Positions 43,441 to 63,963 of a stretch of DNA of 64,000 bases are shown here, piece after piece (the stretch's first letter is position 1; each line of letters begins with the position of its first letter). The stretch lies in the IMG/VR virus record IMGVR_UViG_3300027848_000009, positions 1 to 64,000 of that record; one strand, 5' to 3'. The position numbers and the translations under genes were made by a program. This stretch comes from a virus. The notes below the pieces were generated by a model, which saw only the letters and a list, made by a program, of their open reading frames with translations, made no database searches and was not told the origin of the DNA.

Positions 43441-43450
43441 CGGTCACCCG

Positions 43451-46924: not shown

Positions 46925-46925
46925 G

Positions 46926-47270
46926 TCAGTCGTCTTCTGTTGCGTCGTCTTCTGTTGCGTTTAGGTTGTCATGATAGGAGGCGGCTAGGATTTGCGCCTG
47001 ACGCTCCATCGTGATTGGGTCCAAAATCTTGGGGAGGCTCACTTCAAGATGGCCGATAATTTTGTAGGCGATAACGCTGTTCTCGGTGTCGACGTAGTGG
47101 GGTTGAAGGAGACGAAGGTAGTCCCCGTCCCACATGACCACATAGATGCGTGAATCGTCTCCGTCACCAAACTTGAAGGTACACATTTGCGTGTGCATCG
47201 CATGCCCGGCGGTGCTTAGTTCGGAAATTTGGTCGCTGTCGACGGTTGGGATTTCTGTCTCGTCACTCAT
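46926..47270 (-). CDS. hypothetical protein
   Basis: ORF in operon. Confidence 0.6.
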   Translation of the reverse strand: MSDETEIPTVDSDQISELSTAGHAMHTQMCTFKFGDGDDSRIYVVMWDGDYLRLLQPHYVDTENSVIAYKIIGHLEVSLPKILDPITMERQAQILAASYHDNLNATEDDATEDD

Positions 47271-47299
47271 ACTTTTATCCTAGATGATGGTTGTGTTGT

Positions 47300-47884: not shown

Positions 47885-47899
47885 CCATACGCAGATCCG

Positions 47900-48592
47900 T
47901 CAACGGTTGTTTTGTTCTGAAGCGAACTGTCCTGTCGTGAGGGCGTAGGGCGGATTGTCGATATGCCATACATTGACCACGATGACCTGCTTGATGCCAG
48001 ACTCGATCGGAGTCGTCTCATGGAGGCGGTGGCCAGCGTCGAATACGACAAGCCGGTCGGGTTTGCACGCGATCCGTTCCCGACGCTCGATCGGAGAGAT
48101 CAAAGATGCGGTGTTTTCCTCTTCGAGTCTCATCGAGCCTTCATCGATGCCGTGTTCGTGAATCTCAAGAAACGACCCTGTTGATTCGCTGAATCCGTAC
48201 CAGACGCAGCCGATCCTCGGACCTTGGAACCATTGAGTGTCCGCGTACAGAAATGTGTCTTCGTCGACGTGCCTAGCAAGAAATTGGCCGTGAACGAAGG
48301 TGCGAACCCAGTATTCGAAGCCTGCCACTTCCTCTTCTGGGAAGGGTAGAAGTCCTGTATCCCGCCATATTTTCTCGATGAGGCGTTGCCGGTTGGTTTG
48401 GGCGGGGGATTCCCACCATCCTGACCAGAAAGCGTATGGCGCGTAGCAGTCAGATTGTTCTGAGTGAAATTCGTTGAGAGTCTTCCCTATGTTTTCTCCG
48501 GGCATTTCCGGAGGGAAGAATGATTGATCTTCTCGTATCGGGTGTTCAAGGTCTGTTCCGGATACGAAATTATCAAAAACGAATAGGGTCAT
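47900..48592 (-). CDS. 2OG-Fe(II) oxygenase-like protein
   Basis: GFEYW...RHVDED, GCVWY, RLVVFDAG..LHETT...K....VNVW. Confidence 0.75.
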   Translation of the reverse strand: MTLFVFDNFVSGTDLEHPIREDQSFFPPEMPGENIGKTLNEFHSEQSDCYAPYAFWSGWWESPAQTNRQRLIEKIWRDTGLLPFPEEEVAGFEYWVRTFVHGQFLARHVDEDTFLYADTQWFQGPRIGCVWYGFSESTGSFLEIHEHGIDEGSMRLEEENTASLISPIERRERIACKPDRLVVFDAGHRLHETTPIESGIKQVIVVNVWHIDNPPYALTTGQFASEQNNR

Positions 48593-48867
48593 TTGTTGAA
48601 GATGGTGACCAGTCGCGCCCGCCAAGATGGCTTCTCAAGGATCGTCACGTAAGTGATTTTTTCCGGCTCGGAAACGGGCGCCGTAACTGTTTCTATGTGT
48701 TGTTTTGGGCGCGGATCGAGGCCAGCGTATGGCCCTACGATCTTCCTAGGTGCAGCTTTTTTTGCGACCGTCTTTTTGACCGTAATCTTCTTAGCGGCAG
48801 ATTTTTTTGCTGCCGGTGTCTTTTTGACCGCTTTCTTGACGGCCTTTTTTTTCTCGCTGTTTGCCAT
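48589..48867 (-). CDS. histone H1-like Lys/Ala-rich protein
   Basis: KKAVKKAVKKTPAAKKSAAKK repeats. Confidence 0.65.
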   Translation of the reverse strand: MANSEKKKAVKKAVKKTPAAKKSAAKKITVKKTVAKKAAPRKIVGPYAGLDPRPKQHIETVTAPVSEPEKITYVTILEKPSWRARLVTIFNK

Positions 48868-48912
48868 TTTGTGTTGCTCCGAATTCTGGTTTATTGAACT
48901 ATTGTACTGGAT

Positions 48913-49542
48913 GTGGATCCGTATTCTGACACATATTCAAAGATCGCGCTGGCACTTACAAGCGCTCAAGTGGCCAAGGAAAGTTTGGTCGCTGAAGAAG
49001 GTGTCGGCAGCGATATTCCCTTCAATTTTTTCGGTTGGAGGGAGTCTGAACTCCTAATGATAGTTCAGTTAGACCCCAGCAAAATGAAAGAGCCAATGGC
49101 CGATCGGTTCGATCTTTGCTGCAGCGCAATGCAGGCCATGAGGCAATATTTCGGATGCACGGAAATAACATTTATTGCAGAAGGTATCCATTCGAGCAAG
49201 CCTGAACTCACCTCGGGGAAAGATCTCGCGCGATTGATGGCTGCCGAGTCTCCGTATGTCCGCGAATGTCTCACCGTGACCCACGTCAAACTGGACGACA
49301 ACTACGTTCCGGAAGCAACATTCGTATCTTGCACTTTCCAGTACCTTGCGGGAGAATTCGTTGTGTGGGACGACGAGAAGGCTTACACCCGTGGTGTTGG
49401 AAAAGTTTTGCGCGAAGTTCCATTCCCGGCTATGATGGCCGCATCCCTACGGATGGGGTTCGAAGATCCTGATGATGAAGAGATAGACAGCATCATGGAG
49501 CACTTCCTTAGTAGGGGATTCAATGTAAATCATTTTGGGTAA
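48913..49542 (+). CDS. hypothetical protein
   Basis: 209-aa ORF. Confidence 0.7.
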   Translation: MDPYSDTYSKIALALTSAQVAKESLVAEEGVGSDIPFNFFGWRESELLMIVQLDPSKMKEPMADRFDLCCSAMQAMRQYFGCTEITFIAEGIHSSKPELTSGKDLARLMAAESPYVRECLTVTHVKLDDNYVPEATFVSCTFQYLAGEFVVWDDEKAYTRGVGKVLREVPFPAMMAASLRMGFEDPDDEEIDSIMEHFLSRGFNVNHFG

Positions 49543-49565
49543 CCTATAGGTAGTAAGGTGGGGGC

Positions 49566-49877
49566 ATGAATCATCCTTTTTACAATTCGGGGAGCAGGTG
49601 GATCGATGGGCTGGAAGTCTCTTTCTCTCAAGCCACACGCGAGCCATGCATGGTGTGTGGCCATCCGACGGGGGATTGTGCGGGAAGCCTTCCGCCACCA
49701 GAAACAATTGCCGGGTTCAACACCATCGAGTCGCTGGTACCGCAGCAAACATTTCTCTTAGAGGAAAACATTTTCGAAGAACGGCAAATAACACCTTTTA
49801 CTGTTGCTCGCGTTTTGAAGTATCCAAAGGGAAAAATCATCCCGCTTCAAGAAGCAAGAAATCTAGGATTGGCTTAA
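49566..49877 (+). CDS. hypothetical protein (PCxVCGHPTGDC motif)
   Basis: TAAGGT-6-ATG leaderless start. Confidence 0.7.
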   Translation: MNHPFYNSGSRWIDGLEVSFSQATREPCMVCGHPTGDCAGSLPPPETIAGFNTIESLVPQQTFLLEENIFEERQITPFTVARVLKYPKGKIIPLQEARNLGLA

Positions 49878-49967
49878 CACTTTCCGTATTTTGTTACCTA
49901 GTACAATCAATAAACGGGCGTTACTAACCCGCAAAAAATCATCCAACTAAATTGAAAGAGTCCAATT

Positions 49968-51893
49968 ATGGCCCTGCTCGCAGAGGAATTCCTAGCCTCG
50001 TACGCCTCAAAGTCGCCTCCATGGGGGTTCAATGGGATGGGGGAAATTGTTTACCTCCGCACCTACAGTCGCCCCAAAGGTGATGGAACCAGCGAAACAT
50101 GGCCAGAAACGGTTCAACGAGTCATTGAAGGCGCCGTTGAAATCGGTGTTCCGTACACTCAGAAGCAAGCCGAAGCTCTCTTCGATCACATGTTCAATCT
50201 GCGATGTTCTTTCTCGGGTAGGGCGTTATGGCAGTTGGGAACTCCACTCGTTAAGGCGTTTAACGCAGCGTCGCTGAACAACTGTTACTTCGTGAACATC
50301 GAGAAGGTGGAAGATTTTGAGTTCCTTTTCGATCATCTGATGCTTGGTGGTGGAGTCGGATTCTCCGTCGAGCGTGCAAAGATTCACGAGTTGCCTAAAG
50401 TCAAGGCGTCAGTCGAAATCACCAATGAGCGAAGCGACGATGCGGACATCATCGTTCCCGACAGTAGGCAGGGGTGGTCTCGTCTCGTCCATTCGGTTTT
50501 GAAGTCCTACTTCTATACGGGCAAGTCGTTCTCTTACTCTACGATCCTCATTCGCGAGTATGGGGCTCCACTGAAGACGTTTGGTGGCACCGCGAGCGGC
50601 CCGGGCGCCCTCATTGATGGCATCGTAGATATCTGCAAGGTGATGGACGCGCGAGTGGGGAAGAAGTTGCGTTCCGTTGACGTCCTCGACATCTGCAACA
50701 TCATTGGTCGCATTGTCGTCTCTGGCTCTAGTCGTCGTTCTGCACAGATCGCTATCGGTGACCCCGATGACGTCCTTTTTTTGCGTGCCAAGAACTGGTC
50801 TAGCGGTTCCGTTCCTGCGTGGCGAGCAAACTCGAACAACTCGGTTTATGCGGACTCTTGGGACGAGATCATCCCCGAGGTTTGGAAGGGTTACGACGGT
50901 TCTGGCGAGCCTTACGGTTTCGTGAATCGCAAGTTGGCCCGTCAATACGGGCGCCTTGGACATAAGAAGCCAGATCCGACCATCGAGGGATACAACCCCT
51001 GCGCTGAGATTGCTCTCGGCGATGGAGAGTCTTGCAACTTGTCAACGATCTTCTTGCCGAAAATCGATTCGTTGGCTCAGTTCCGCGAGGTTTCTGAACT
51101 TCTCTACATGTGTCAGAAGCAGATCACACGGATGGATTACCCGTATGAGAAGACAACGAAGATTGTGTCGAAGAACGCCCGTTTGGGTCAGTCTGTCACT
51201 GGAATTTTGCAGTGCTCAGAGAAGCAACTGTCGTGGCTTGATCCGGTCTACGAGTATCTTGAGGGTCTCGACGAGAAATATTCGGAAGAGCACGGTTTCC
51301 CGAAGTCTGTCCGTCTGACAACAGTTCAGCCTTCTGGCACGTTGGCTCTTCTTCCCGGAGTCACTCCCGGGGTTCATCCCGCTTACTCCCAGCATTACAT
51401 CCGTCGTGTTCGGTTTGGTTCGTCTGATCCGCTCGTTGATTCGTGCCGTAAGCGTGGCTATACGGTCAGGTGGGACGTCGGCATTGACGGGCGAGAGGAT
51501 CACACTCGCTACGTTGTGGAGTTCCCCTGCGAGTCGCCGGAGGGCGCTGTCTTGGCCGCAGATATGACTGCTGTGGAGCAGTTGGAGTGGGTGAAGAAGA
51601 TGCAGACCGACTGGGCCGATAATGCCGTTTCGGTAACAGTCTATTACCGGCTTGAAGAGTTGCCGGAAATTAAGCAGTGGATGTCAGAGAACTACACGAA
51701 TGTCCTGAAGTCGGTGTCATTTTTGCTTCACGCTGACCACAACTTCCCGTTGCCTCCTTACGAGGAATGCACGAAGGAAGAGTACGAGAAGATGCTGGCC
51801 AAGATCGATTTCTCGGTTCCATTGGTCCAGTCGACATTTACGGATGAATTGATGATCGATGACTGCGCCACCGGAGCGTGCCCCATCAAGTAG
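49968..51893 (+). CDS. nrdJ: class II (adenosylcobalamin-dependent) ribonucleotide reductase, monomeric RTPR type
   Basis: RTYSR, GRALW, NNCYF, NPCAEI...CNL, TTVQPSGT, C-terminal CATGACPIK. Confidence 0.93.
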   Translation: MALLAEEFLASYASKSPPWGFNGMGEIVYLRTYSRPKGDGTSETWPETVQRVIEGAVEIGVPYTQKQAEALFDHMFNLRCSFSGRALWQLGTPLVKAFNAASLNNCYFVNIEKVEDFEFLFDHLMLGGGVGFSVERAKIHELPKVKASVEITNERSDDADIIVPDSRQGWSRLVHSVLKSYFYTGKSFSYSTILIREYGAPLKTFGGTASGPGALIDGIVDICKVMDARVGKKLRSVDVLDICNIIGRIVVSGSSRRSAQIAIGDPDDVLFLRAKNWSSGSVPAWRANSNNSVYADSWDEIIPEVWKGYDGSGEPYGFVNRKLARQYGRLGHKKPDPTIEGYNPCAEIALGDGESCNLSTIFLPKIDSLAQFREVSELLYMCQKQITRMDYPYEKTTKIVSKNARLGQSVTGILQCSEKQLSWLDPVYEYLEGLDEKYSEEHGFPKSVRLTTVQPSGTLALLPGVTPGVHPAYSQHYIRRVRFGSSDPLVDSCRKRGYTVRWDVGIDGREDHTRYVVEFPCESPEGAVLAADMTAVEQLEWVKKMQTDWADNAVSVTVYYRLEELPEIKQWMSENYTNVLKSVSFLLHADHNFPLPPYEECTKEEYEKMLAKIDFSVPLVQSTFTDELMIDDCATGACPIK

Positions 51894-52113
51894 ATCGGTT
51901 GTGTTGTTGGCGGAACAGTTGCTCTTTGTTAGCTGGTTCCGCCAACAGTATGCCTTCTTCGTCGCATAGCCAGCAGGTCCGATTGTCGACCCAAAAAACG
52001 AGACATGGGGCGCAACCGTAAACTGTTGAGGTCCATGACATCATCGCCAGTGCGCTGAATCCAACTTTTATCAGGTGGTCCTTGAGGAATTCGGCGGTCG
52101 GGTTGTCAGTCAA
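51886..52113 (-). CDS. small Zn-binding hypothetical protein
   Basis: C.PC...W....CWLC. Confidence 0.5.
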   Translation of the reverse strand: MTDNPTAEFLKDHLIKVGFSALAMMSWTSTVYGCAPCLVFWVDNRTCWLCDEEGILLAEPANKEQLFRQQHNRST

Positions 52114-52472
52114 GGCTTGACACCGAAATAGTTCGTTGCGTGCCCTGAATCTACGAGTTGTTCGTTTAGGGAAATCTCGCATTTTTCGTCGGCGTAGATG
52201 TTGGCAAGAAGACGACCGTATTTGCCTTTTCCGTCTTTGAATGTCTGGACGAAACAGTCCTTGGTCCGGTCGAACCAGTCCTCGACGTAGGCTTTTGCGG
52301 CAAGGCCTAGTTCTTTTTCGGCAAGATTTTTGGTTCTGATCTCAGGGGTATTGATGCCGTACAGTCGGCACCTGACTTTGTGGTGAATGTTGAAACCTAA
52401 ATCGATGGTCAGATCTACTGTGTCACCATCGACAACTCGTTGGAGTTTTGCTTTGTAGGTGTACAGGTTCAT
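52110..52472 (-). CDS. thermonuclease (SNase-like) family protein
   Basis: RVVDGDTVD..IDLGF, RLYGINTPE, GKYGRLLA. Confidence 0.9.
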   Translation of the reverse strand: MNLYTYKAKLQRVVDGDTVDLTIDLGFNIHHKVRCRLYGINTPEIRTKNLAEKELGLAAKAYVEDWFDRTKDCFVQTFKDGKGKYGRLLANIYADEKCEISLNEQLVDSGHATNYFGVKP

Positions 52473-52739: not shown

Positions 52740-54065
52740 TTAGGCGTCTGCTGGTGCGGAGTTGAAGCTGACGGAGACGAAGGCCTCCGGACGCTTGACC
52801 GCGAGGGCCAGACGCTGCTCTGCGAGCACCACGATCGCGTTGCGAACGAAGAAGTCCGAGTGCTGCTCGGAGATCCGGATGTTCGCTTGCTCTCGATCGT
52901 ACAACTGGGCGCCGGTACCGAACGCACCGACGAGAGCGGTGCCCTCATCGATGGCCGGGGTCTCGACGACCGGGAGACGCCACACACGCGGTTCGCCACC
53001 AAGGGCGACCGAGATGGCTACGAGGTACTGACCGTTGCTGTCCTTGGTCAACTCGATGTCTTCCCAGTCGTTCGGGTGAAGAACGACGCCGGTCGGCTCG
53101 TAGTAGGCAAGGAACGACAGCGTGGCGGCGCGACGAATCGCGTCAGCCTTGGTGTCGGGAACCGGTAAGGTTGCGCCGCTGGACCAGTTGTATGTCTGGA
53201 TGCCAGCAGTGTTCAGCACACCCTCAAGGTTCTCGCCGGTGCCGTCACCAGAGAGGATTTGAGCGTCCTCCTGAAGGCGGAGGCCGTACATCAACTCGTT
53301 GTCGATGATCGAACGCAACTGCGGCTCGTCGGCGAGCACGTTGCGGTGAGCGGCTTCCCAGTGAGCAATGGTCCGCACGGGCGCCTGAACGCCAGTGAAG
53401 GTCATAGCGGACTGCGGCTTGACGCCGAACACGTTAGGCGTACCTGCCGTGCGTTCTGCCACGGTGGCGGCGTTGTTCGTGAATCCTGTCATCCGGAAGT
53501 ACTCGACAATTGCTGCCGAGGTGGTTCGTACCGGGAACAGGTCGCGAACACGCTTGGTGCGCATCGGCGGGATGACGATGGGGTCACGATCGATCGTACC
53601 GAACTGCCCGGGGGTGCCTGAAGGCATAGCCGAGTAGAGGTCCTTGACGTCGTAGCCGTTGGCTGTGGTGAGGGCACCCTTGTACTGGAAGGGCGACGGC
53701 ATGTTGGCGCCGTTACGTCCACCCTGAAGGGTCTTGAACTCTTCTGAGCCGAGGAATGCTTCGCCAACGGACTTGTACCTGGTGCGAGCCTCGCGGAGGC
53801 CCTCTCCGGCGGCGGCGGCGGCGGCGATGGAGTCGCCTTCAGCCTCGGAAGCCCATGCTTCGACGCTCTCAAGCGACTGAAGGCCGGTGATCAATGACTT
53901 GATCTCCTTGATTTCCGTCATGTTGCTGTCGAATGCCGACTTCTGGGCCTGATCGACAATGACAACGCCGTCTTCGATCTGGAATGAATCTGCGATCGCC
54001 TTGTTTGAGGCGGTCTTTTCTCGGAGCGCGGACTGCAACTCCTTGATGCGGTTTGCATCTTCCAT
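52740..54065 (-). CDS. HK97-family major capsid protein
   Basis: AGGAGG SD; VRDLFP, VRTIAHW...R.VLAD.PQL, EDAQIL.GDG, FVRN.IVVLAE.RLALAV.RP.AF. Confidence 0.95.
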   Translation of the reverse strand: MEDANRIKELQSALREKTASNKAIADSFQIEDGVVIVDQAQKSAFDSNMTEIKEIKSLITGLQSLESVEAWASEAEGDSIAAAAAAGEGLREARTRYKSVGEAFLGSEEFKTLQGGRNGANMPSPFQYKGALTTANGYDVKDLYSAMPSGTPGQFGTIDRDPIVIPPMRTKRVRDLFPVRTTSAAIVEYFRMTGFTNNAATVAERTAGTPNVFGVKPQSAMTFTGVQAPVRTIAHWEAAHRNVLADEPQLRSIIDNELMYGLRLQEDAQILSGDGTGENLEGVLNTAGIQTYNWSSGATLPVPDTKADAIRRAATLSFLAYYEPTGVVLHPNDWEDIELTKDSNGQYLVAISVALGGEPRVWRLPVVETPAIDEGTALVGAFGTGAQLYDREQANIRISEQHSDFFVRNAIVVLAEQRLALAVKRPEAFVSVSFNSAPADA

Positions 54066-54176
54066 ATGAATCTCCTCCTTGGAGAAATAATTTGGGTGAA
54101 CGTGGTTGCAAAGACTACGTGAGCACGCGCCCTCTTACATAAAATAATAGACCAACCACAAGGGTTAATATTGCAA

Positions 54177-55844
54177 CTACAGGATTTTTTCTGATTTACC
54201 TTGCGGGGGATTTTGTTGGGCACTTTTCCAACGATTCCTTACATAGTTGGAACCGGTCGACCCAAAGAAGTCATCAAACGACTTGTCATCATTGATCTCA
54301 AAAGCACCATCTCGCGTACGCTTGGCAATGAGCGACGGTGGCTGAACACTATTGTTCCACAGGTAGAAGTCATCAAACATATTGGACGTAATCTGACGTG
54401 GAACAATAGGCTGCAACTCTCCAGCAATTTGGCTACCGAACCACCCCGGGAGAACCGGACCACCAGAAGCCTTATTTATTGCATTGCGAGAAGCTAAGCG
54501 TCGATCGGCCTCAGCGCCCGGAATGTAGACAAAGTGCCCAACCGTCGCGTAACCGTTGTTTCTCGCCCACTTCAGGTGCTCTGTCCGCTTACCCGTTCCG
54601 GTAACGACCACGTCCGTGCCCGCCTCACGGGCAGCATCCATCGCCCTGTCCGTGACGGCCCTCGAAGCAGGGTGAACTGCCGCAGCGCCACGACCACCGT
54701 CCCACCCCTCAAGTTGAGTCTTGATCCAGTCCGGATCAATGAAGGCAGCTGCATTGGACGCTGGAACATCCAGAGTCCCATCCTCGACAAGAGTGGTTTT
54801 TCCTGAGCCGGTTGTTCCGCCAACAAAATGTAGCGTCCTAGCGCCGCCCGGCTTGTTTCTGTGCTCAGGGGCGACCCGATTGATGATTTTAGATGTCGCT
54901 TCTCGGCCACCAGAACCGACCCTGCCGGACCTCATGCCTGAACGGAGTTCTCTATACTTATCTACCGTGTCGCCACTCAACGCCTTTCGGACGCTAGGGG
55001 GAGCCTCTGAGTACCAGCCGGGATCACTGGCGATCAGTTTCTCCCAAGACGCCGCTGACGACTTCTTCGTCTTCGTTGCTTTCTTGACCGCTTTCCCAAC
55101 TTTTCGTACCACTGCAGGTCGCTCGAAAGCTGTTGAGTCCTGAATCAGGCCGTCGTTGTCCCCATCGAGGGCCTTGGGGTCGTATGGCTGAGCGGAGCGG
55201 AGCGCCCTGCCGAGAGACTTGCCATACAACTCTTCGTTGAGAGAAACCTTGCGGCGCGGCTTTTTCTTACCGAGCCTGTCCTGCTCTTCTTCAAGGATTC
55301 GACGGGCCCTTTGACGTTCTAGCCGATCCCGGTATCTCCTGCCCAGCGCGGTCGATCCAGTGCGTCGAGCGTAATCGGTGATATTGCTACACGGTGTCCA
55401 TACTGTATTTCCGCCGGTGGAGCGGCGACGAGCTACCCCGATGCAGCCCATTTGGCGAGCACGCCTGCGGGCGGAGTTTATGTCAGTGAAAACGTCCTCG
55501 TCTCCATCGAATGGAATGGAGGACGCAGCTTTGCCTCCAACTGCTCCTGAAACAAGGCCGCCGCCAGACATTGTGTCGATTGCAATGACGCCACGCTCGC
55601 TGAGTTCTTCCCAGTTCTTTTTGTTCTTAGATTTCTTTTTGCGGCCCTTGCGTTCGCGAACGCTTTCGTAATCACGCATTCTAGAAAGGACAGACTTTTT
55701 TTCCTGTTCGTTTTCGAGACGCTCGTACTCTTCGTGGGTTTTGCAAGCCATCCACGTTCCGTTTGGGTGTTGATGAGCACCAGCACAGCCGAGTTCTTTG
55801 GCTCGGCGCAGAGCCGCTGCCCTGTTTGCGGTGTCTCCGGACAT
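54177..55844 (-). CDS. head-associated multidomain protein: two DUF3721-like Cys modules + zeta-toxin (P-loop kinase) domain
   Basis: RAKELGCAGAH...WMAC and RARQMGC.G...WTPC; GGTTGSGKT, IDPDWIK, DVVVTGT, R...GG..LP, LWNNS. Confidence 0.75.
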   Translation of the reverse strand: MSGDTANRAAALRRAKELGCAGAHQHPNGTWMACKTHEEYERLENEQEKKSVLSRMRDYESVRERKGRKKKSKNKKNWEELSERGVIAIDTMSGGGLVSGAVGGKAASSIPFDGDEDVFTDINSARRRARQMGCIGVARRRSTGGNTVWTPCSNITDYARRTGSTALGRRYRDRLERQRARRILEEEQDRLGKKKPRRKVSLNEELYGKSLGRALRSAQPYDPKALDGDNDGLIQDSTAFERPAVVRKVGKAVKKATKTKKSSAASWEKLIASDPGWYSEAPPSVRKALSGDTVDKYRELRSGMRSGRVGSGGREATSKIINRVAPEHRNKPGGARTLHFVGGTTGSGKTTLVEDGTLDVPASNAAAFIDPDWIKTQLEGWDGGRGAAAVHPASRAVTDRAMDAAREAGTDVVVTGTGKRTEHLKWARNNGYATVGHFVYIPGAEADRRLASRNAINKASGGPVLPGWFGSQIAGELQPIVPRQITSNMFDDFYLWNNSVQPPSLIAKRTRDGAFEINDDKSFDDFFGSTGSNYVRNRWKSAQQNPPQGKSEKIL

Positions 55845-55846
55845 GA

Positions 55847-56215
55847 TTAGGACTCGTTATAGTTGTAGTCCATCGAAAGACGAGCTACTTTCGGGTCGCT
55901 GATCTTCAGTTTCTCAAGTTTCGCTGCAGCCTTTTGAGCCTCAAAGGTCTCGTAGCCGTATCGCTTCCGGTACATCTCTGCTTCTTCAATTTGATCTTCG
56001 TAGTCTTCCCCAATGGCTGCGAACAAATCGTTATCTGGCGGATATGGCTTACCTGCCTCTCGTATTCGCATGATGAACTTTTGACGCATTTCTTGGTCAA
56101 TCGAAAAAGGCGGGTAGTCGATCGCGTGCGAGAAGCGTTTGTGGTAGTCACCGAACTTTTTGCGCTCCTCTACCTCCTCGTCGGTCAGATCAAGATCGTA
56201 GGTATTTACTGTCAT
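55847..56215 (-). CDS. hypothetical protein (possible partner of upstream ART domain)
   Basis: Tightly coupled downstream of the 1633-aa gene. Confidence 0.65.
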   Translation of the reverse strand: MTVNTYDLDLTDEEVEERKKFGDYHKRFSHAIDYPPFSIDQEMRQKFIMRIREAGKPYPPDNDLFAAIGEDYEDQIEEAEMYRKRYGYETFEAQKAAAKLEKLKISDPKVARLSMDYNYNES

Positions 56216-56217
56216 GG

Positions 56218-59200
56218 TTATCCTCTGGCTGCTTTGATCATTACTCTTGCTTCGATACCATCTATCGGCTGAGAGATATCAAGTACTGCGACCGTTCCGC
56301 GGTTATGGACAAGCACAACTTCGCCGTGATCGACGTAGTCGTATCCTAACATAGGGGCATAATAGCCAGCGTCGTGGGCGGACAATGACTGCATGTACCC
56401 CAGCGCATCCCACATTGGTTCGCGACGAGGGTCGTCTGGTTTCAACTTTGAATACTGATCAATCCATTGGTCATAAATTCTGCCCATATCTGACTGCTCA
56501 AGAAGTCCGGCAACTCCAAGACGAGTTTCTGCTTCTTTCAGACGTTTTGTTATTGCCGCCGCAGCGTTTGCTGGATCCTCATTTTTGAGAACATCGGTAC
56601 CCTGCTCAGAGATGAGCGATTCGACCTCTCTGGCCAACTTTTTGTGATCGTTCTGGATGTCATTGAGGTCTTTGCTGTCGATTCCGTTGCCGTCAGGATC
56701 AACGAATCCGACCATTCCCGTACCGTAAGCACCCCAGTGGCTACTCTTTTCTGAAGCCCAGTATTCTCCCACGCCGTAAGCACGAGCACCCTGACCCGGG
56801 ATGAAACGATCGTCGTCCTCCTTGTAGGAGTTGATGTAGCCGAGGGCCTTACTGTTCTCACGGCCGACGCCACGGTGGATGGGCGTCCATCCAGCATCAA
56901 TCAATGTTTCGAATTCGTTCTCCGATAGAAGCACCGGCTTACCGTTCATTTCCCCGTTCTCCCAAAGATTCAGGAGAAGATCGTCAAACGTTTCCTTGTC
57001 GATTTCGCCTTTGTCTCGCCCGATGATCCGAGTCTGAACAAAGGCGAGGAAGTCAATGAAATTGTCATCGACCTTCGGTTTTCCGCCTGCGTCACGGGCA
57101 AGTGGAGTTTTCTGACGTCGATCCTCGAACAGTTTGCGAATACTCTTCTCGGTACGCTCTCCACGCAACTTGCGTCGCGCCCTGCGGAGCAATCGCGCGA
57201 GCTTACGACGCGCCTTTTCGGTGGCAGCAATGTCGGACTGGGTGGCGGTACGACCGAGCAGAGAGTTCCGACGCATACGTCGGTTTTGGCGGCGCTGTTC
57301 GCGATCTGCATCGGGTTGCATGATGCGGTCGGCGAAGTCCCTCCGACGTTTGCCGGCCTTCTTCGCTGCCCTTTCGGAAATTGCACCCCCTACGGCGCTG
57401 GCACTTGATGAACGCTCATCGTTATAGAAGGTCGATTCCTGACCGAGGCCCACCGATGCCGCTGTTGGGACGTCCTTGTTTTCTTTGCGAGCGTCCGTCA
57501 TCACCCGCTTCTGCGTCGTGTCGTGGAGATGCTCCAGCATTGAGTAGTCGCCACGTAAGCGCATCTCGGCAAGAGTCTTGATGTCGTCTAGCTGCTTCCG
57601 CTTACTGGCGTAAACTTCGGGTGTGATTTCACCGTCTCCAAGACTTGAGTCAAGTGCTGACTGCAAAGTTTCCAGTAGGTCATTTTCCGGTACAATTTGA
57701 CGCATCTCGTCTGGCGTCATGCCGACTGTATATAGGCCGTCATCGAGCATGTTTTGACGAGCCCCATCGAGCGGGCCGTTTTTCGTGAGGTCGTAGAACA
57801 AGGCACCTTCTCGCGCCCTTGCTGCATCACGGACAGATGCTTTCTGAGCATCATTCAAGTTGCCCCAAACCTGACCGTCTCTGTCGTTGACCTTGGTTAT
57901 ACCAGCGACGCCTCCGCGTTTCTTCCGTGAGCGCATGCCGCCACCAAGGCCGCGTGTTGCAGTGACGTCCATTTGTGCTGCTTGGCGGTCGGCCCTATCA
58001 ATTCCTCTGTCGGGGGAAAAGCGGGGGGCCGCTTGGCGTGCTGAACGCATTCCATTTCCGGAGGGATCCTTTGGGGGTATCGAGTCGACCTTGCCGACCT
58101 TGCCGACACCACGATCCTTTCCGTTCTTCTTTGCGTTTCGTTCAAGATCGACGATTGCATCGCTGCCCCAGATCCGTCTGATCCAACGTTCGACATCGTG
58201 TTTTAAGGGCTTTCTGGGATTCCAATGCGTTCCCCGAAATAAAATACCTACTCCGATTTTTTCCTCGAACTTTGGGCTATTCGGTCCGGGCCACGTGCTG
58301 GTCACGTCGGTCCCCTGCTTCTTGGTCCAGTCGTACAGGCGGTCGGGAACAATAATTACCGACCCATTTCCGCCCGCATCGTGCAGAACAAAACCATTGG
58401 CCTCAAGCATTTTGAAGAAATTTTGGTCACCGGCCTCGATGCGTTTGTGTTGCGGACGTTTCGCCTCGCCGTTGAGGCCGAAGTAAAGTTCAACCGTCCG
58501 CTTGTTTGAGGTGTCGGTAATTTTGGGTAATTTTTCACTACTGACATTCGATGGATTGCCACTCGTTGGGTTCTTCGGGCTCTTCGGCGCCTTCGGCTTC
58601 TTCGGCCCCCTCCTTGATTGCAACCCGCTGATACTGCTAGAGCGACGCTCAGTCAGCGTGTCGAGAGTGTCATTCAGTATCTGAGAAAGACTAGAACGAT
58701 CCGAATTAGACATGCCATCCAAAGGCCCATCGAGTTCGAGTTGGCGCAGGGCTGCCCGGAGGCGCCCCATGAACTCTGCGTTCGAACCGTAAACACCCTT
58801 TCCATCGAGGACCGTAGCGGCTTCCACGACGGCACTACTAATTCCGTTATTCATTTGCGCGTAGCCACCAAAATTAACGTCGACGCCATCGAGTAGTTCC
58901 CGTACTTCTTTTCCGGTTGCGCGCTCCTTGGAAGGGCGCATGCCCTTCGATTTCCTTATCGATTCGAGACCAAGAGAGTCTTCGACACCACCACCGAATT
59001 CGTAGGTGTTGCCGCTGGGGGTTTCAACGAAAAGCGAATGGTGACCGCCACCGTAGTCGCCGCGGTTACCCCAACTTGCCTCTCGAAAATATTCGTATCT
59101 TGCACCTTTGAGAGGCCCCTTTGTGATGCGTCCACGAACGGTTTCGTCTTCTCCGGGTAGTTGTGCGTCCCAGCCGGTGCGGCGACGGGCTGGTGTGTAA

Positions 59201-61119
59201 TTGTTTGCGTTCTGCAAAATTTCGCCGGGGAATTCGCCGTAGAACTCTCGCACGTTTTCGAGAACTTCGTCGAAAACCATTTCCGTTTCATCGGGGTCAA
59301 ACCCGTCGCGCTCAGCCGTACGCCGCATGTAGTCGACGTTACGGTTGTGTGGGAAGATGTTGTCTGACTCACGTTGCTGCGTTGACCGTCTTCCTCGTAG
59401 GTCGCGTTGGAGTGCTCGCTGGCGACGAAGTTCGTCGGCGACAACCATTCCGTCGCGATAGTCGCCATCAAAATTATTGTCAACCCACTTTTCCCACTTT
59501 TGTGGAAACCATTGGTTTTCTATTTCGGTGGACGGGTCGATGCCGAGTTCGTCTCTAAGTTCTGCGAGGCGTTCATCCGTGGCGCTAATGTACGCGTCCA
59601 TCTCTTCGGGGGCTATGTCGTCAAGTGTGCGACGGCTACGAAGACCCGAGTACAGCTGGGCAATTTGGTCGTCGTCGAATCCAAGTTCGCGGAGACGCTC
59701 CTCGCGTCGATCCGCCATCCGCTTTATCCGTTCGGGGTCCTCAGGGATGATGTTGCCCTTAGAGTCTCGCTTGACTTGCCCGTCTGAGCGGGATAGGCGC
59801 TGTGAGCGCATACCGCCCGCCAGCAGCGGTTGCTCCCTGACCCACCGCTCCAACTCCGCGCCTGTCAGCAGCGGCCTATTTGGGTCCCTTGCCTCATCCG
59901 CTTCCATTTCCGCTAGCGATCGTCGAATTCCGGCGGCGGCGGCGGCGGCGAGCTTCTCGATCTCGTCGAACGGGAGGTCACCGGGGAGGTTGTCCCCGTA
60001 CTTCTCGGGGAGTCCGAGATTTGTCGGGTCGTCCCTGCGCCTCCGCGCCGTCTCCGCTCTCACCCCGGCGCCTCTGCGGGCCTCTTGTTCGGCTGTCAGA
60101 CCGAGGCTGCCGATTTTACCATCATCCCGTTGGCGCCGTTCGGAGCGACGGCCCTGAATCGATGAGCCATCAATGCGGCGAACCAAACTCGACTGATCCC
60201 CAAGCAGCTCCCGCAAGCGGTTCTCGTCGAGGGCCGCGGCCGGATTCCCGGCACGACGCTCCTTTTCGATTTCCATTGAATCGCCGTCAACAAGGGCGGA
60301 GACCCGTCGAGCCATATTCTTTGGGACAGTGAACCGTGGGATGATTGGACGTTCCATTCCGGGCACGCCCTCAAATACGATCCCGTCACTGTCCCCATCG
60401 ACCCGTCCGGTGATGTCAACGAAAGACATTCCTCGCGGTGCGGAACGAAGACCGCCTCCAACTTTTGGTCCAAGCGCTTTGACCTCTGGTTCGAATGGGC
60501 TCAGGCTGTATCCGCCGTGATTTAGGAGGGACTCAGATTTTGCTTTGAGTACTTCCTTGACTGTGCGGCGAAGAATCCCTGTTCCGTTCGCCATATTGGA
60601 AAGATCGCTACCTAGGTGCGGGTTATTGTCCCTCGACTTGAATCGCATTCCCTTGGTCTCGATTCCGAGACCATCAACCCGAACCTTGGCCATAACCGAC
60701 GAACGTGCGGTTTCGTTGAGCAGCGAGCGGACCTTGAATTCGACTGCGGTTTGGAAATGCTCGTCAGGGAAGAACGAGAGAGGGACGCCCGACATGTCGA
60801 GAATTTTGGTGTTCGCCCGAGTTTTAAATGAAGCCACGTGGACCATGTCATCTCGGTTTGGGAGCCTGACATCGAGATTCCCATCGATCATTTCGGCAAG
60901 AAGAGGCTCTTCCGACGCCGACAAGCCTCGGAAGGCGCCGACTTCGATCCCGTATGGGAGTTCGTCTTCGATGCTTTTTGTTTGGATGTCGTTATACGCT
61001 TCCGCCCATGCTTCGCCTTTCGCCGAAAGGCCATAACAGGTTTCAGCAACTTCATCTCGAACGACTAAGCCAAACAGCTTTCCCGAAATTTTGTCTTTTA
61101 CGATTGCGTACTGTTTCAC
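56218..61119 (-). CDS. 1633-aa polyvalent protein with C-terminal ADP-ribosyltransferase-like domain
   Basis: IHRG...G.RAYGVGEYW...GAYG...LGYD....EVVLVHNR; DGDSDG motif; repeated G-x-R-S linkers. Confidence 0.7.
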   Translation of the reverse strand: MKQYAIVKDKISGKLFGLVVRDEVAETCYGLSAKGEAWAEAYNDIQTKSIEDELPYGIEVGAFRGLSASEEPLLAEMIDGNLDVRLPNRDDMVHVASFKTRANTKILDMSGVPLSFFPDEHFQTAVEFKVRSLLNETARSSVMAKVRVDGLGIETKGMRFKSRDNNPHLGSDLSNMANGTGILRRTVKEVLKAKSESLLNHGGYSLSPFEPEVKALGPKVGGGLRSAPRGMSFVDITGRVDGDSDGIVFEGVPGMERPIIPRFTVPKNMARRVSALVDGDSMEIEKERRAGNPAAALDENRLRELLGDQSSLVRRIDGSSIQGRRSERRQRDDGKIGSLGLTAEQEARRGAGVRAETARRRRDDPTNLGLPEKYGDNLPGDLPFDEIEKLAAAAAAGIRRSLAEMEADEARDPNRPLLTGAELERWVREQPLLAGGMRSQRLSRSDGQVKRDSKGNIIPEDPERIKRMADRREERLRELGFDDDQIAQLYSGLRSRRTLDDIAPEEMDAYISATDERLAELRDELGIDPSTEIENQWFPQKWEKWVDNNFDGDYRDGMVVADELRRQRALQRDLRGRRSTQQRESDNIFPHNRNVDYMRRTAERDGFDPDETEMVFDEVLENVREFYGEFPGEILQNANNYTPARRRTGWDAQLPGEDETVRGRITKGPLKGARYEYFREASWGNRGDYGGGHHSLFVETPSGNTYEFGGGVEDSLGLESIRKSKGMRPSKERATGKEVRELLDGVDVNFGGYAQMNNGISSAVVEAATVLDGKGVYGSNAEFMGRLRAALRQLELDGPLDGMSNSDRSSLSQILNDTLDTLTERRSSSISGLQSRRGPKKPKAPKSPKNPTSGNPSNVSSEKLPKITDTSNKRTVELYFGLNGEAKRPQHKRIEAGDQNFFKMLEANGFVLHDAGGNGSVIIVPDRLYDWTKKQGTDVTSTWPGPNSPKFEEKIGVGILFRGTHWNPRKPLKHDVERWIRRIWGSDAIVDLERNAKKNGKDRGVGKVGKVDSIPPKDPSGNGMRSARQAAPRFSPDRGIDRADRQAAQMDVTATRGLGGGMRSRKKRGGVAGITKVNDRDGQVWGNLNDAQKASVRDAARAREGALFYDLTKNGPLDGARQNMLDDGLYTVGMTPDEMRQIVPENDLLETLQSALDSSLGDGEITPEVYASKRKQLDDIKTLAEMRLRGDYSMLEHLHDTTQKRVMTDARKENKDVPTAASVGLGQESTFYNDERSSSASAVGGAISERAAKKAGKRRRDFADRIMQPDADREQRRQNRRMRRNSLLGRTATQSDIAATEKARRKLARLLRRARRKLRGERTEKSIRKLFEDRRQKTPLARDAGGKPKVDDNFIDFLAFVQTRIIGRDKGEIDKETFDDLLLNLWENGEMNGKPVLLSENEFETLIDAGWTPIHRGVGRENSKALGYINSYKEDDDRFIPGQGARAYGVGEYWASEKSSHWGAYGTGMVGFVDPDGNGIDSKDLNDIQNDHKKLAREVESLISEQGTDVLKNEDPANAAAAITKRLKEAETRLGVAGLLEQSDMGRIYDQWIDQYSKLKPDDPRREPMWDALGYMQSLSAHDAGYYAPMLGYDYVDHGEVVLVHNRGTVAVLDISQPIDGIEARVMIKAARG

Positions 61120-63080
61120 TTTTTACCTCCAAGCGCGATTACAATTTGTTCACGCTGGTTTTGAAGAATATCGATTCTATTTTCTACAATAGTCGAAACA
61201 ATATTCAGGTGGGTTTTCTCGGCGGTACTCAACGACCCATCCGAATAGAGCCGATTCCGGTATCGCGTGAAACTAAACTTTCGCGCTTTTTCCAAAAGTT
61301 GAAATACTTGCTGCTGCATCTGACGTTTTTGCGACTCCTTCAACTCTCTATAATACTTGCTGTACACGCCTTCAATATTGACCGATTGAAACTTTCGTAT
61401 GCGGGCTTTTGTTCTCTCGCTGATTTTGATTTCATCCAAATCGTAAAGTTCCGACTGAGCAAACAGTGGAACAGCAGTAGCCGTGTCGCCCTTTTTGAGA
61501 ATGGCGATCGAATTTAGTTTCCGATTGGTAACGTCAGAAAGTAGGTCTGCGACCAGAAGTGCTGCCACTTGGTTCGTGTCAATGTCAGAAAGCGCAATAT
61601 CTGTTGTCAGTTTGGAGCCATCTACGACCGACTCTGGCGACTCGATCAACAGATTTTTCTTTGCCCCAGTGCCGGTAATCCCGTAGTCGGGTGTATCGAT
61701 GCCCAAAAACTTCTGCACTTCAGCGGAAAACCCGTGATTAATATGATCGTTGGGACGTGTCGACTTGCGAAGAGCGTAAGACTTTCCTGATGTCGAGGTG
61801 TACAGATTCCCTTCTCTCTTGAAGATATTTGCTTCGCGAAGTGCTGCCTGCAGGATCGACGGACTGATTTGCGAAAGAGGCCCACCTTTTTTGATGATTG
61901 CAGCAGCTTGGCTTACATCTGTCACATCGTCCGTCGGCGAAGCAGGCTTCTTGGAGGCAGCCGTCTTTGGCTTTTTTGCTTTCTTGAACATGTCCCCGAT
62001 AGTTTTACCTGTGGGGAGTTTCTCCGTGTAGGACATCCCGTCGCCGGTTTCTTCAACTAGGTATTTTAGTCGCGCTGCCGGGTCTGAACTGTTGTCTGTT
62101 TTGATTGCCTTGTTTACTGTTCGACCAAGTTTTCGACGTTCACCAACAGTAAGTTTTCGAACCTTTTTGATTTCGACGACCCCACCGTTGTTCAGGACAT
62201 ACGTCACGTTGGTTACACCAGTATTCGACATCAGGCCAAGTTCTTCCCCACCGAAATTGTCGACCGACTGCAACCGCATGACATAGGTTGCATCCTCCAT
62301 GTCACGGTTGTCTGGAATTGTTCGTAGAACCGCGCTACTCACAACTGGTTCCAGAACGAAACTGTCTCGTCGGACAAGGCGAACAGCGTCTCCATCAACT
62401 TTGCTCATCCCTTTGATGATTTCGCCAACCGCCTTATCGCGGGCGACCGCATTCGTTTTTGGCGAGACCCGAGGAATTTGTGGACGTCGAACCGTCGTTA
62501 CATTGCCCACGCCCGGGGAGCCAGTGATTGGATCGCCCTCAACGGTGTCGACTTGCATAGCACGCGGACCCCTGAGCGCCCTGCGAATGGCGGAAATTGC
62601 CCGACCGAGCGGTCCGGGAAGACCGAACAGTTTTGCTCCACACGTCGACAAACGGTTATCGGTGAAACGGCCACCATACTGGTATCCCTCTGGACATCTG
62701 CTTGTTCCGTTGCCGGGAGACCTGCGCCGTCTCCCACCCCCGCCGCCGGGAGTAAGTGCCCGCGCGATTCCGGAGCGAATGGGGCTCCTGTAGGGGGAAA
62801 TGTTTCCCGGAAGGATTGCTGATCCGACCGACTGGGCGGCCTGTCCGGCCCGGCTACTTGACCCGATGAGCCCAACGCGCTTTACTCGGTAGTTGCCATT
62901 GCGGACCGAAAGACCCTTGTACTCGATGACTTCTTCTAGTCGGGCGCCGACTCCACGCAGATACGGCGTGTTGACTTTCGTGTTCAGATCGACCAGTATC
63001 ACCCTTTTCACGCTGATGGCTGGACACGCCTCGCATCCTGTTTCTTTGTCGTACAAGAATGACTCAACCATCATGCGCAC
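61116..63080 (-). CDS. head-associated protein with degenerate HipA/PI3-4-kinase-like C-terminus
   Basis: RCPEG..YGGRFTD..LSTCG; SAEVQKFLGIDTP, LVADLL....RK.NSI. Confidence 0.55.
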   Translation of the reverse strand: MRMMVESFLYDKETGCEACPAISVKRVILVDLNTKVNTPYLRGVGARLEEVIEYKGLSVRNGNYRVKRVGLIGSSSRAGQAAQSVGSAILPGNISPYRSPIRSGIARALTPGGGGGRRRRSPGNGTSRCPEGYQYGGRFTDNRLSTCGAKLFGLPGPLGRAISAIRRALRGPRAMQVDTVEGDPITGSPGVGNVTTVRRPQIPRVSPKTNAVARDKAVGEIIKGMSKVDGDAVRLVRRDSFVLEPVVSSAVLRTIPDNRDMEDATYVMRLQSVDNFGGEELGLMSNTGVTNVTYVLNNGGVVEIKKVRKLTVGERRKLGRTVNKAIKTDNSSDPAARLKYLVEETGDGMSYTEKLPTGKTIGDMFKKAKKPKTAASKKPASPTDDVTDVSQAAAIIKKGGPLSQISPSILQAALREANIFKREGNLYTSTSGKSYALRKSTRPNDHINHGFSAEVQKFLGIDTPDYGITGTGAKKNLLIESPESVVDGSKLTTDIALSDIDTNQVAALLVADLLSDVTNRKLNSIAILKKGDTATAVPLFAQSELYDLDEIKISERTKARIRKFQSVNIEGVYSKYYRELKESQKRQMQQQVFQLLEKARKFSFTRYRNRLYSDGSLSTAEKTHLNIVSTIVENRIDILQNQREQIVIALGGKK

Positions 63081-63721
63081 TCTCTGCAGTCGTCGTCTCG
63101 CGTGAACTCGTTTACGAGTTTTGTTCCATCAGACATCTCGACCTCAAGTTCCCAGTTATCGTAATCGCGGAGATAGTTGGCAAAGGTTGGCTCCATTGCG
63201 ACAAAGTCGGTTAGCACAGAAAATGCATGCTTGTAATCCATTTCGGTTACGACAGGTGGAATACCGTCGTCGAATCCAAGGCTTTTCATTTCTTGAAAAT
63301 CGCTAAAGAAGACATCATCGCTGTCTTCCCAGTATCCTTCGAGAGACTTCTTGCCCTTTTTGAACCGTTTCTTCATCCTGCGATTGAAGTCGCCGTCGCT
63401 CCAATTCTTCAGTTTCTTGAGTTTCCCTTTACAGTTCTTCATGGTTGGATGGTGGCAGCCTTCATTCGGCCACAAACCAGTAGTTTCATGATGAAGCCAA
63501 GCGCATATTCTGCTCAACGGATACAACTCCGGATGGTTCTTCAGGATTACCCTGCAGCGCGTGAAGCCTCCCGGCTTCCTCATGATTGGGCGCCAGTAGC
63601 GAAGAAGTCGCTCTAGGTTGCCGCGTCTTGGTCCACGTCCGCGAAGGACGTCGCCAGTGATACGCTCCTGAGGGAGGTCCAAAAGTATATCTTGAATTGC
63701 TTTGATCTCTAGATCAATCAT
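63071..63721 (-). CDS. head-associated protein (LxRYW...PGxFxRC...CAxLH..TGxWP domain)
   Basis: Motif resembles that in actinophage minor capsid/MuF fusion proteins. Confidence 0.65.
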   Translation of the reverse strand: MIDLEIKAIQDILLDLPQERITGDVLRGRGPRRGNLERLLRYWRPIMRKPGGFTRCRVILKNHPELYPLSRICAWLHHETTGLWPNEGCHHPTMKNCKGKLKKLKNWSDGDFNRRMKKRFKKGKKSLEGYWEDSDDVFFSDFQEMKSLGFDDGIPPVVTEMDYKHAFSVLTDFVAMEPTFANYLRDYDNWELEVEMSDGTKLVNEFTRDDDCRECA

Positions 63722-63738: not shown

Positions 63739-63963
63739 TTATTCAGTGCCTTCTTCGGCGTTGGAACCCGAAGTCAACCGCTTGTGCCGCTCTTGTGATG
63801 CAATGCGTTCTTCGAGGGATCGAGTTGCTATAAGTTTTTTTGGGCGCTGCGATTTAGGTACATTTAGAAAACCGTACCTGAAACTGTTCCAAATCTGCTC
63901 ATCTGTCTCGTCCCTGAATAGATTGGTATGAGAAGTGTAAGAAATGTTGTAATCGTTATACAT
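63739..63963 (-). CDS. hypothetical protein (may begin beyond the window)
   Basis: ORF at window edge. Confidence 0.4.
   Translation of the reverse strand: MYNDYNISYTSHTNLFRDETDEQIWNSFRYGFLNVPKSQRPKKLIATRSLEERIASQERHKRLTSGSNAEEGTE

Follow-up and report, generated by a model that had tools for sequence, protein, structure and literature searches.

What do the short motifs do that recur through several giant proteins encoded next to the capsid gene of a phage? The question is raised by a 64,000-bp stretch of DNA (hereafter the window), bases 1-64000 of the 155,887-bp IMG/VR virus record IMGVR_UViG_3300027848_000009, whose completeness was estimated at 98% by CheckV. Tightly packed on the minus strand of the window lie a gene for a major capsid protein (MCP) and genes for products of 555, 122, 1633, 654 and 216 amino acids (aa), a layout of open reading frames (ORFs) that agrees with the one given in an original prediction made from the DNA letters. 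Two classes of motif in these proteins had been read there as cleavage sites, a Lys-containing one that would free leaders and a second one, G-[MLR]-[RQ]-S, that would release a string of effector domains. The evidence presented below supports the conclusion that the second motif, in the form G-[ML]-R-S, is a conserved inter-domain linker element at which homologs gain and lose cassettes, and this element is very probably functional. The best reading of the locus is that of a protease-processed polyvalent cargo, a moderately probable one, in which we infer both the processing (the cut, its scissile bond and its enzyme) and the packaging and ejection of the cargo.

Occurrence and enrichment of the G-[ML]-R-S motif

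The motif is found mainly in putative cargo proteins, two of which are encoded in the window. The first is a multi-domain protein of 1633 aa (56218..61119, minus strand, as for all window features of the head operon) with at least six folded units in AlphaFold2 (AF2) models between motif-bearing linkers; the second is a 555-aa protein (54177..55844) matching the Pfam families DUF3721 (1.8e-12) and Zeta_toxin (2.5e-09). As claimed, and at the coordinates given by the original prediction, eight copies of G[MLR][RQ]S were counted in the 1633-aa protein, at residues 223, 323, 436, 492, 576, 832, 1023 and 1061, and one in the 555-aa protein, at residue 303. The GRRS at residue 576, which lies in a confidently modelled long helix and is not conserved, is probably no true instance and was dropped, while a site that had been overlooked was recognized at residue 726, where this phage reads GMRPS and three homologs read GMRS or GLRS.

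Enrichment was assessed over a proteome of 185 ORFs (48,159 aa), divided into a head module of 12 proteins (9,041 aa) and the remaining 39,118 aa, with 300 shuffles. Twelve of the 14 copies of G[ML]RS in the whole proteome belong to head-module proteins: five to the 1633-aa protein, five to a protease fusion encoded beyond the window (see below), and one each to the 555-aa protein and to a 1680-aa protein. When extended to G[ML]RS.[RK], the motif was counted 11 times in head proteins and not once in the rest, with a shuffle mean of 0.05 and none of the 300 shuffles reaching the observed number. The extended motif is thus both enriched in and exclusive to head proteins, a stronger result than had been stated before. 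The consensus derived from 205 distinct contexts reads [G/R/S]-G-[M 69%/L 30%]-R-S-[R 43%]-[R 40%], with flanks rich in Arg, Gly, Ser and Asp. No G-[ML]-R-S is present in the MCP.

Conservation of the motif in homologs

Homologs of the 1633-aa protein, 11 proteins of 1250-2563 aa, were retrieved from a 5.8-billion-protein collection. The same gene order was recovered in seven IMG/VR contigs by an alignment-based scan of viral contigs, and synteny of the head operon holds in nine related contigs. No match was returned by a viral-contig scan with the 1633-aa protein as the single query, by blastn of 54177-61119 or by tblastn of the DGD module (see below), the last two against GenBank phages. The motif is absent from the cultured relatives nearest by MCP (Cantare; DalanDe/GMA6), and de novo 4-mer counts in DalanDe pointed to no substitute.

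Motif columns are shared in the homolog alignment at reference residues 223, 436, 492, 726, 832, 1023 and 1061, and conservation of the four core residues exceeds that of the 40 flanking residues at all seven sites. The Gly and the hydrophobic residue are the most conserved positions, Arg being at times replaced by Lys or Gln and Ser by Ala or Asn. From the N-terminus onwards, the degenerate G323-R-R-S (60142..60153) aligns with GLQSRR in two homologs; G436-M-R-S-Q-R (59803..59814), adjoining a variable cassette region, has an invariant Gly in the homolog alignment; G492-L-R-S-R-R (59635..59646) appears as GLR[SN] or GFRS in nine homologs; next comes the degenerate G726-M-R-P-S (58933..58944); and G832-L-Q-S-R-R (58615..58626) is aligned with GMRS, GLRA and GMMS. 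The last two sites, G1023-M-R-S (58042..58053) and G1061-M-R-S (57928..57939), have counterparts in 10/10 homologs, the latter as GGG[ML]R[SA]. In the 555-aa protein, G303-M-R-S (54927..54938) precedes the zeta domain and reads GMRS, GMRH or GLRS in 5/5 orthologs, and in the protease fusion 5/5 sites persist in homologs that are 71% and 45% identical.

A HMMER scan of 1.84 billion cluster representatives identified 64 clusters, sharing mainly the C-terminal ~600 residues of the 1633-aa protein. Many of the remote matches start at query positions 587-633, which is the location of sites 1023 and 1061, and remote homology begins at the former. Members at 27-35% identity keep the motif in up to 14 copies, some of them in tandem (GMRSRSGGMRS). 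At the DNA level, codons at the motif sites vary synonymously, with four Gly codons, CGN and AGG for Arg, and TCN and AGC for Ser. Since synonymous codons are free to vary at these sites, selection acts on the protein.

Position between folded units and cassette exchange

That the motif would fall in linkers rather than inside folded domains was borne out by structure models. The AF2 model of residues 434-1633 of the 1633-aa protein, built from a 12-sequence alignment with a mean predicted local distance difference test (pLDDT) of 69, comprises six confident units with low-confidence stretches between them. The conserved sites 436, 492, 726, 832, 1023 and 1061 are all located (6/6) between folded units, in segments of pLDDT<50 that make up 22% of the residues (chance ~1e-4). 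In model numbering, these segments are 1-19 for site 436, 57-65 for 492, 292-299 for 726, 395-433 for 832 and 582-644 for 1061, site 1023 also lying in a low-pLDDT linker. In the model of the 555-aa protein (5-sequence alignment, mean pLDDT 55), GMRS 303 likewise occupies a low-confidence stretch (300-310, pLDDT<50), just ahead of the kinase domain. Structural comparisons of the 1200-residue model provided nothing at E<=0.001 against the PDB with Foldseek, only generic helical hairpins (Z<=9.2) with VIA-align, and only unnamed phage proteins in BFVD.

Homologs also differ from one another at the motif. The homolog P0011 is distinguished from P0008, with which it shares 95% identity, by one clean 323-aa insertion that extends from motif to motif (GGMR|S to GLQ|S). 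Among the 54 indel boundaries that ten pairwise alignments contain, 39% are at most 10 residues away from a motif, versus 10% at random, and the cassettes of homologs are inserted upstream of site 436, between motif copies. Indels thus tend to start and end at the motif, in agreement with the domain shuffling for which the original prediction had proposed to look.

A prohead protease heading a motif-carrying protein

The head operon spans 28 kb, of which the window holds the distal half. From portal to capsid, its order is portal, 1652-aa S78 fusion, acidic 458-aa protein, the 1680-, 832-, 133-, 216-, 654-, 1633-, 122- and 555-aa proteins, and MCP, with ~25 kb of genes between protease and capsid. 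A search for the protease gene expected beyond the window identified an S78 (HK97-type) enzyme fused to a motif-carrying protein: the first ~190 residues of the 1652-aa product, which holds five copies of the motif, match Peptidase_S78 (PF04586, 7.4e-11, 42.9 bits, cut-off 21) and are followed by DUF6321. BLASTP comparison of the S78 domain with HK97 gp4 (E 4e-9) aligned the catalytic His and Ser regions of the two, GHN and SIGY facing NHK and SVGF of gp4. The protease frame reaches 2,887 aa in another relative.

Two further proteins of the operon, of 832 and 1680 aa (genome positions 64148-66646 and 66643-71685, minus strand), have HExxH motifs (HEMTH and HEMGH) that are conserved in all relatives examined. 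Neither protein matches a Pfam peptidase family, and BLASTP of the 832-aa against the 1680-aa protein revealed no paralogy beyond HEMxH. Relatives encode members of the 1680-aa family of 2,364-2,507 aa. Searches for PF18818 (MPTase-PolyVal) returned nothing in the genome at E<=10, and no head protein of this genome matches MuF.

The K-site, the DGD module and the capsid protein

The Lys-containing motif fared less well in the form in which it had been proposed. As [EQ].K[ASG], its enrichment is marginal, with 21 copies in head proteins versus 14.0 +/- 3.4 in shuffles (13/300) and 15 copies in the rest of the proteome, but its refined form K[AS][LV]G is enriched (head proteins 9, rest 3; shuffle mean 0.9; 0/300). 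The shorter K[AS][LVI] gave 36 copies in head proteins and 48 in the rest (shuffle mean 14.4 +/- 3.7; 0/300). The element E-x-K-[AGS]-L-G-[RP] is conserved near the N-terminus in five cargo families, with its Lys at residue 55 of the 654-aa protein (E-Y-K55-G-L-S), 128 of the 832-aa, 177 of the 1680-aa, 209 of the 555-aa and 214 of the 1633-aa protein. A sixth instance is found inside the protease fusion (residue 573), and the 216-aa protein reads EMK146|SLGFDD in the K-site alignment. By its sequence, which resembles the K|SLG cut of the HK97 capsid, and by its location, at residue 55-215 of the cargo proteins, K-[AS]-L-G would fit the end of a removable N-terminal leader.

The DGDxDG motif reported in both effector proteins is indeed present in the 1633- and 555-aa proteins (residues 241 and 227), as well as in the protease fusion and the 458-aa protein beyond the window. 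It belongs to a module occupying ~40 residues after the K-site in four head proteins, whose pattern is roughly [FY]-D-P-x-A-x-D-G-D-x-D-G-x-[VI]-Q-[ED]-G-x-x-F-E-R-P and whose copies cross-match at E 1e-9 to 1e-13. The module resembles an EF-hand or Excalibur-type calcium loop, the Excalibur match being weak (E 0.09). In the 555-aa protein, K-site and EF-hand-like module read K209-S-L-G-R ... YDPKALDGDNDGLIQD..FERPA (55116..55220) and are conserved in orthologs. In the 1633-aa protein, the K-site, the first GLRS and the module follow one another as K214-A-L-G-P-K-V-G-G-G-L-R-S-A-P ... VDGDSDGIVFEG..ERP (60334..60480), an arrangement conserved in eight homologs; at this position, the related locus L011 has the canonical form FKPYDPNAIDGDMDGIVQEG. 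The module may help mature cargo to dock, or it may be what the protease recognizes.

The MCP itself (441 aa, 52740..54065; Phage_capsid 2.5e-45, phrog_10 5.8e-65) has the HK97 fold and an N-terminal delta-like coiled-coil region, and is 74-89% identical among relatives. The QYKG and DVKD put forward as its K-motifs carry no weight, the HK97-like site being RYK98|SVG. This candidate site for cleavage of the delta domain (K98-S-V-G, 53763..53774) aligns, as RYK98|SVGEAF, in both position and sequence with FNK103|SLGSD of HK97 gp5, which is cut between K103 and S104.

The motif in a distant relative

The contig G006 (125 kb, 44% GC over the examined locus), whose MCP is 74% identical, keeps the gene order. 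Its motif is present in the 1680-like (5 sites, partial ORF), 1633-like (2,543 aa, 16-18 sites) and 555-like proteins; the 832-, 654- and 216-like proteins and the MCP have no copy. The 555-like product (locus L024) is a polyvalent protein of 2,281 aa that begins with DUF3721, K-A-L-G and the DGD module, followed by GLRS 268, GFRS 658 and Zeta_toxin (688-841), and continues with GMRS 926, GMRS 1333, pentapeptide repeats (1473-1675), GFRS 1716, and ArdcN (1981-2097) with MPTase-PolyVal (2124-2249; 2.9e-43). A motif thus stands between every successive pair of functional units, except for the natural ArdC pair, and none lies inside a Pfam domain. In G006, the S78 protease is the N-terminal part of a 3,661-aa open frame, in which 24 motif sites were counted at intervals of 25-293 residues. 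KTSC domains (PF13619) were observed as inter-motif units in the 1633-like protein (L024:10001-17629) and in the 3,661-aa protease fusion (L039); together with the pentapeptide repeats (DNA-mimic type) and ArdC-N+MPTase, they point to an anti-restriction cargo.

Identity of the putative cargo domains

According to the five-ortholog alignment and the AF2 model, the 555-aa protein consists of two DUF3721 repeats, K-S-L-G with the DGD module, the GMRS linker and a zeta-like kinase. The presence of this kinase just downstream of the motif, as proposed originally, was confirmed. The predicted zeta/PezT-like P-loop kinase domain (~residues 331-545, 54210..54854) scores 37.3 bits with Zeta_toxin (cut-off 22.3) and carries a Walker A sequence, GGTTGSGKT, and then IDPDWIK, both invariant in orthologs. 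The best Foldseek matches of its model were 1gvn, 2p5t, 3q8x and AvrRxo1 4z8t (E 3e-07 to 9e-05), the first three at E about 1e-6 with a probability of 1.0, which, with the sequence match, makes a solid case for a zeta-like kinase. UDP-GlcNAc and NAD are candidate substrates of this kinase. No recognizable epsilon-type antitoxin occurs in the operon. Directly upstream of the zeta-domain gene, an acidic 122-aa protein (55847..56215), syntenic in all relatives and free of any Pfam, PHROG or Atlas match, occupies the position expected of an epsilon-type antitoxin and may, as a candidate idea, act as one.

The C-terminal alpha/beta domain of the 1633-aa protein (~residues 1393-1633, 56221..56943) is the most widely conserved part of the protein, found in the 64 clusters, and a candidate effector. 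Its fusion partners, MuF in P0067 and an APH/HipA-like kinase in P0066, show the domain to be mobile, which fits a delivered effector. Its assignment as ADP-ribosyltransferase (ART)-like is tentative: the Atlas language-model feature search linked it to ART-PolyVal clusters (0.90), but no match to PF18760 (ART-PolyVal) was obtained in the 1633-aa protein, its 10 homologs or the genome, and none by a PDB profile search. Conserved residues of the domain include R, G-x-G-x-Y, LGYD and NR, and no conserved E-x-E. The HicA-like segment proposed at ~58150-58450 found no support in Pfam, where searches at E<=1 gave only DUF498 (0.28, residues 834-1022); AF2 places a small alpha/beta unit there. More generally, the 122-, 1633- and 654-aa proteins match no Pfam or PHROG family, and segments of the 1633-, 1680-, 832- and 1652-aa proteins and of all 10 homologs gave nothing above noise in Pfam. 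A chorismate-mutase match scored 17.7 bits, below its cut-off of 27, and was dismissed as an artefact of coiled-coil sequence.

Proposed mechanism and alternatives

Four families, namely the protease fusion and the 1680-, 1633- and 555-aa proteins, are built of folded units of ~50-300 residues on flexible Arg/Gly/Ser-rich linkers, each with one G-[ML]-R-S-x-[RK]. We favour protease processing of polyvalent cargo because of this pattern, of the processing precedent of SPN3US and phiKZ, and of the embedded peptidases predicted for polyvalent proteins (see below). Cargo proteins would be co-assembled into the prohead via their N-terminal leaders, which the HK97-type protease would remove at E-x-K|[AS]-L-G, leaving cargo that starts with the shared, Ca-binding-like DGD module. 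The G-[ML]-R|S linkers would be cut, probably after Arg, by the same protease or by a second embedded peptidase. The products would be domain-sized internal proteins, among others the zeta-like kinase and the effector-like domain conserved at the C-terminus of the 1633-aa protein, that remain in the head until they pass into the host together with the DNA. Judged on sequence, it is probable that the motif is a cleavage site, and slightly less likely than not that the S78 enzyme is what cuts it. A single enzyme for both classes of site is allowed because both share a basic-then-small residue pattern, and a second enzyme is allowed because the flanks differ and the MCP has no G-[ML]-R-S. A true polyprotein strategy in a clade of large phages can be proposed, tentatively: the S78 protease would stand at the front of polypeptides reaching 3,661 aa, with as many as 24 regularly spaced G-M-R-S sites, and the same code punctuates three more cargo families.

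Several points weigh against cleavage of the linkers. The phage is uncultured, and the cuts are predicted from sequence patterns. The MCP, a near-certain S78 substrate, has K|SVG as its site and no G-[ML]-R-S, and the linker motif may therefore suit another enzyme or be uncut. The motif is missing from some remote members of the family, and two relatives (L005 and L006) have no Lys at the MCP site (RFG-SVG, KFG-TVG); their MCPs read AAK|AAAF 14 residues upstream, where this phage has AAAAAGEG, possibly a cleavage site that has shifted. Confidence in the AF2 models is modest (mean pLDDT 69 and 55, from 12 and 5 sequences), and low pLDDT indicates disorder only by proxy. Basic Gly/Ser-rich linkers might also bind DNA or the capsid instead.

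Under one alternative, the motif is left uncut and is a short linear motif for binding or modification within flexible linkers. It could tether internal proteins to the portal, to the inner wall of the capsid or to the packaged DNA, or be a site of Arg/Ser phosphorylation or ADP-ribosylation. The abundance of Arg, Gly and Ser in the flanks, the tandem doublets of remote homologs and the lack of the motif in the MCP speak for such a role. It is nevertheless improbable, as the Gly and the hydrophobic residue rather than the charges are kept best, which suits a protease subsite more than electrostatic DNA binding, and as one motif per linker, domain-sized spacing and a fused protease are the pattern of a viral polyprotein.

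A second possibility retains cleavage and assigns it to an embedded zincin-type metallopeptidase, with S78 cutting K-[AS]-L-G only and the linkers being cut perhaps only after ejection into the host. Candidates are the HExxH proteins of 1680 and 832 aa in this phage and MPTase-PolyVal in relatives. The HExxH is kept across relatives in both families, an MPTase-PolyVal domain lies at the end of the 555-like protein of G006, a K-site but no G-[ML]-R-S is present in the MCP, and exactly this role was predicted for MPTase by Iyer et al. (PMC5512222). We regard this enzyme assignment as unlikely all the same, PF18818 being undetected in this genome even at E 10, the HExxH proteins matching no Pfam peptidase family and the densest motif arrays sitting in the polypeptide that is headed by the S78 protease. 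Finally, that the motifs are relics of cassette recombination, i.e., a DNA-level junction with no role in the protein, would explain why homolog indels begin and end at the motif but is highly improbable, given the codon variation at the sites, on which a DNA-level recombination signal was rejected, and the persistence of the motif between genomes of 44% and 55% GC and at <35% protein identity.

Genomic neighbourhood

Other members of the head operon lack the motif or are located beyond the window. The 654-aa protein (61116..63080; 42-77% identity in relatives) has no G-[ML]-R-S, and none was seen in its counterparts in relatives. The 216-aa protein (63071..63721; phrog_6439, a family of unknown function; 60-88% identity in relatives) is also without it. 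The 133-aa gene has its 3' part inside the window (63739..64000, running to 64140), and the acidic 458-aa protein is encoded at genome positions 71709-73085, both on the minus strand. The C-terminus of the 458-aa protein, DGSFPI.N..DL.NAI..HGRA.DK..AKKHI..RA, also ends the 1633-aa 'capsid maturation protease' of Gordonia DalanDe. This shared C-terminus is probably a scaffold-type element that DalanDe carries on its protease and this phage on a separate protein. The portal lies outside the window (Phage_portal 3.9e-49). Beyond it, and transcribed divergently from the operon, is the gene of the large terminase (810 aa; genome 80555-82987, plus strand), which contains an intein-like insert (LAGLIDADG_3 + Hom_end) between its ATPase and nuclease parts.

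On the other side of the capsid gene are a staphylococcal-nuclease-like endonuclease (52110-52472, minus strand; phrog_452 2.2e-42) and a class II (B12-dependent) ribonucleotide reductase (49968-51893, plus strand), both conserved in relatives. With these two genes right after the MCP, the head operon therefore breaks off at the MCP, without head-tail connector genes after it on the minus strand. The stretch ~42000-52000 shows a fall in GC content from ~0.62 to 0.50-0.54, and GC skew climbs sharply at 44-48 kb. The nearest cultured relatives by MCP are actinobacterial myophages, Brevibacterium phage Cantare (58%) and Gordonia GMA6/DalanDe (49%), and the host of this phage is, on MCP similarity, probably an actinobacterium.

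Relation to known systems and significance

Protease-processed head cargo and polyvalent proteins are already known in kind. The prohead protease of SPN3US processes ejection proteins with propeptides of 111-254 residues (PMC10052503); T4 gp21 cuts the internal proteins (IPs) and Alt at L/I-x-E, and the phiKZ-like SPN3US gp245 cuts at A/S/G-x-E (PMC10052503, PMC5694885). The present locus resembles these systems in that many head proteins with a short shared motif are encoded with the head genes, with predicted N-terminal propeptides of ~100-250 residues, a putatively self-cleaving protease and cargo thought to be ejected into the host. It differs from them in its protease, which is HK97-type (S78) and forms the N-terminus of a multi-site protein of 1,652 to 3,661 aa; in its motifs, G-[ML]-R-S and K-[AS]-L-G; and in having, instead of a single maturation cut, many candidate inter-domain sites per polypeptide, known from sequence.

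Likeness to HK97 itself lies in the S78 protease with aligned catalytic regions, the HK97-fold MCP with its N-terminal delta-like region and the K-S-[LV]-G at the boundary. In contrast to this phage, HK97 is not known to package cargo proteins and has a protease of 225 aa, whereas here protease and MCP lie ~25 kb apart and five cargo families share the K-site.

For the polyvalent proteins of phages and conjugative elements, zeta-like kinases included, processing by embedded peptidases was predicted in 2017, with an explicit analogy to RNA-virus polyproteins (PMC5512222). Disparate effector domains on one giant polypeptide, encoded among virion genes, are common to both, and the zeta-like kinase and ArdC-N+MPTase are named members of the repertoire described there. 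At least two disparate effector domains are found in the 555-like ortholog of G006, the copy of this phage having only zeta and DUF3721, and all the genes lie between portal/protease and MCP on one strand. The MPTase-PolyVal and MuF hallmarks are seen only in relatives, no match of this genome to hidden Markov models (HMMs) of MuF, MPTase-PolyVal or ART-PolyVal was obtained, and most units are unnamed; moreover, PMC5512222 gives no motif for cleavage or linkers, and S78 is not among the embedded peptidases that it names. As in MuF-fused toxins and the zeta/PezT/AvrRxo1 kinases, a zeta-fold kinase with an intact Walker A is part of a predicted virion-associated protein, and, as in MuF-fused effectors, the 1633-aa C-terminal domain is joined to MuF in a remote homolog; unlike these systems, the operon itself has neither a MuF domain nor a recognizable epsilon-type antitoxin.

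Literature and full-text searches retrieved no description of a conserved inter-domain site code for polyvalent proteins, of an HK97-type prohead protease heading giant multi-site polypeptides, or of a shared DGD module, and searches for the peptide motif led only to the unrelated GmrS restriction enzyme. The locus offers, for polyvalent proteins, a concrete candidate site code, a candidate enzyme and clear domain boundaries. As most of its units belong to no known family, it is also a catalogue of possible early-infection or anti-defence proteins. If the proposed processing is true, multi-substrate head proteolysis would be extended from the T4-type proteases of jumbo phages to an HK97-type protease, and the locus would show a phage enlarging its injected cargo through added cassettes. 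Under a true polyprotein strategy, the different internal or injected proteins freed in the head by one protease would number in the dozens, and new effector cassettes could be added between two sites with the processing machinery unchanged.

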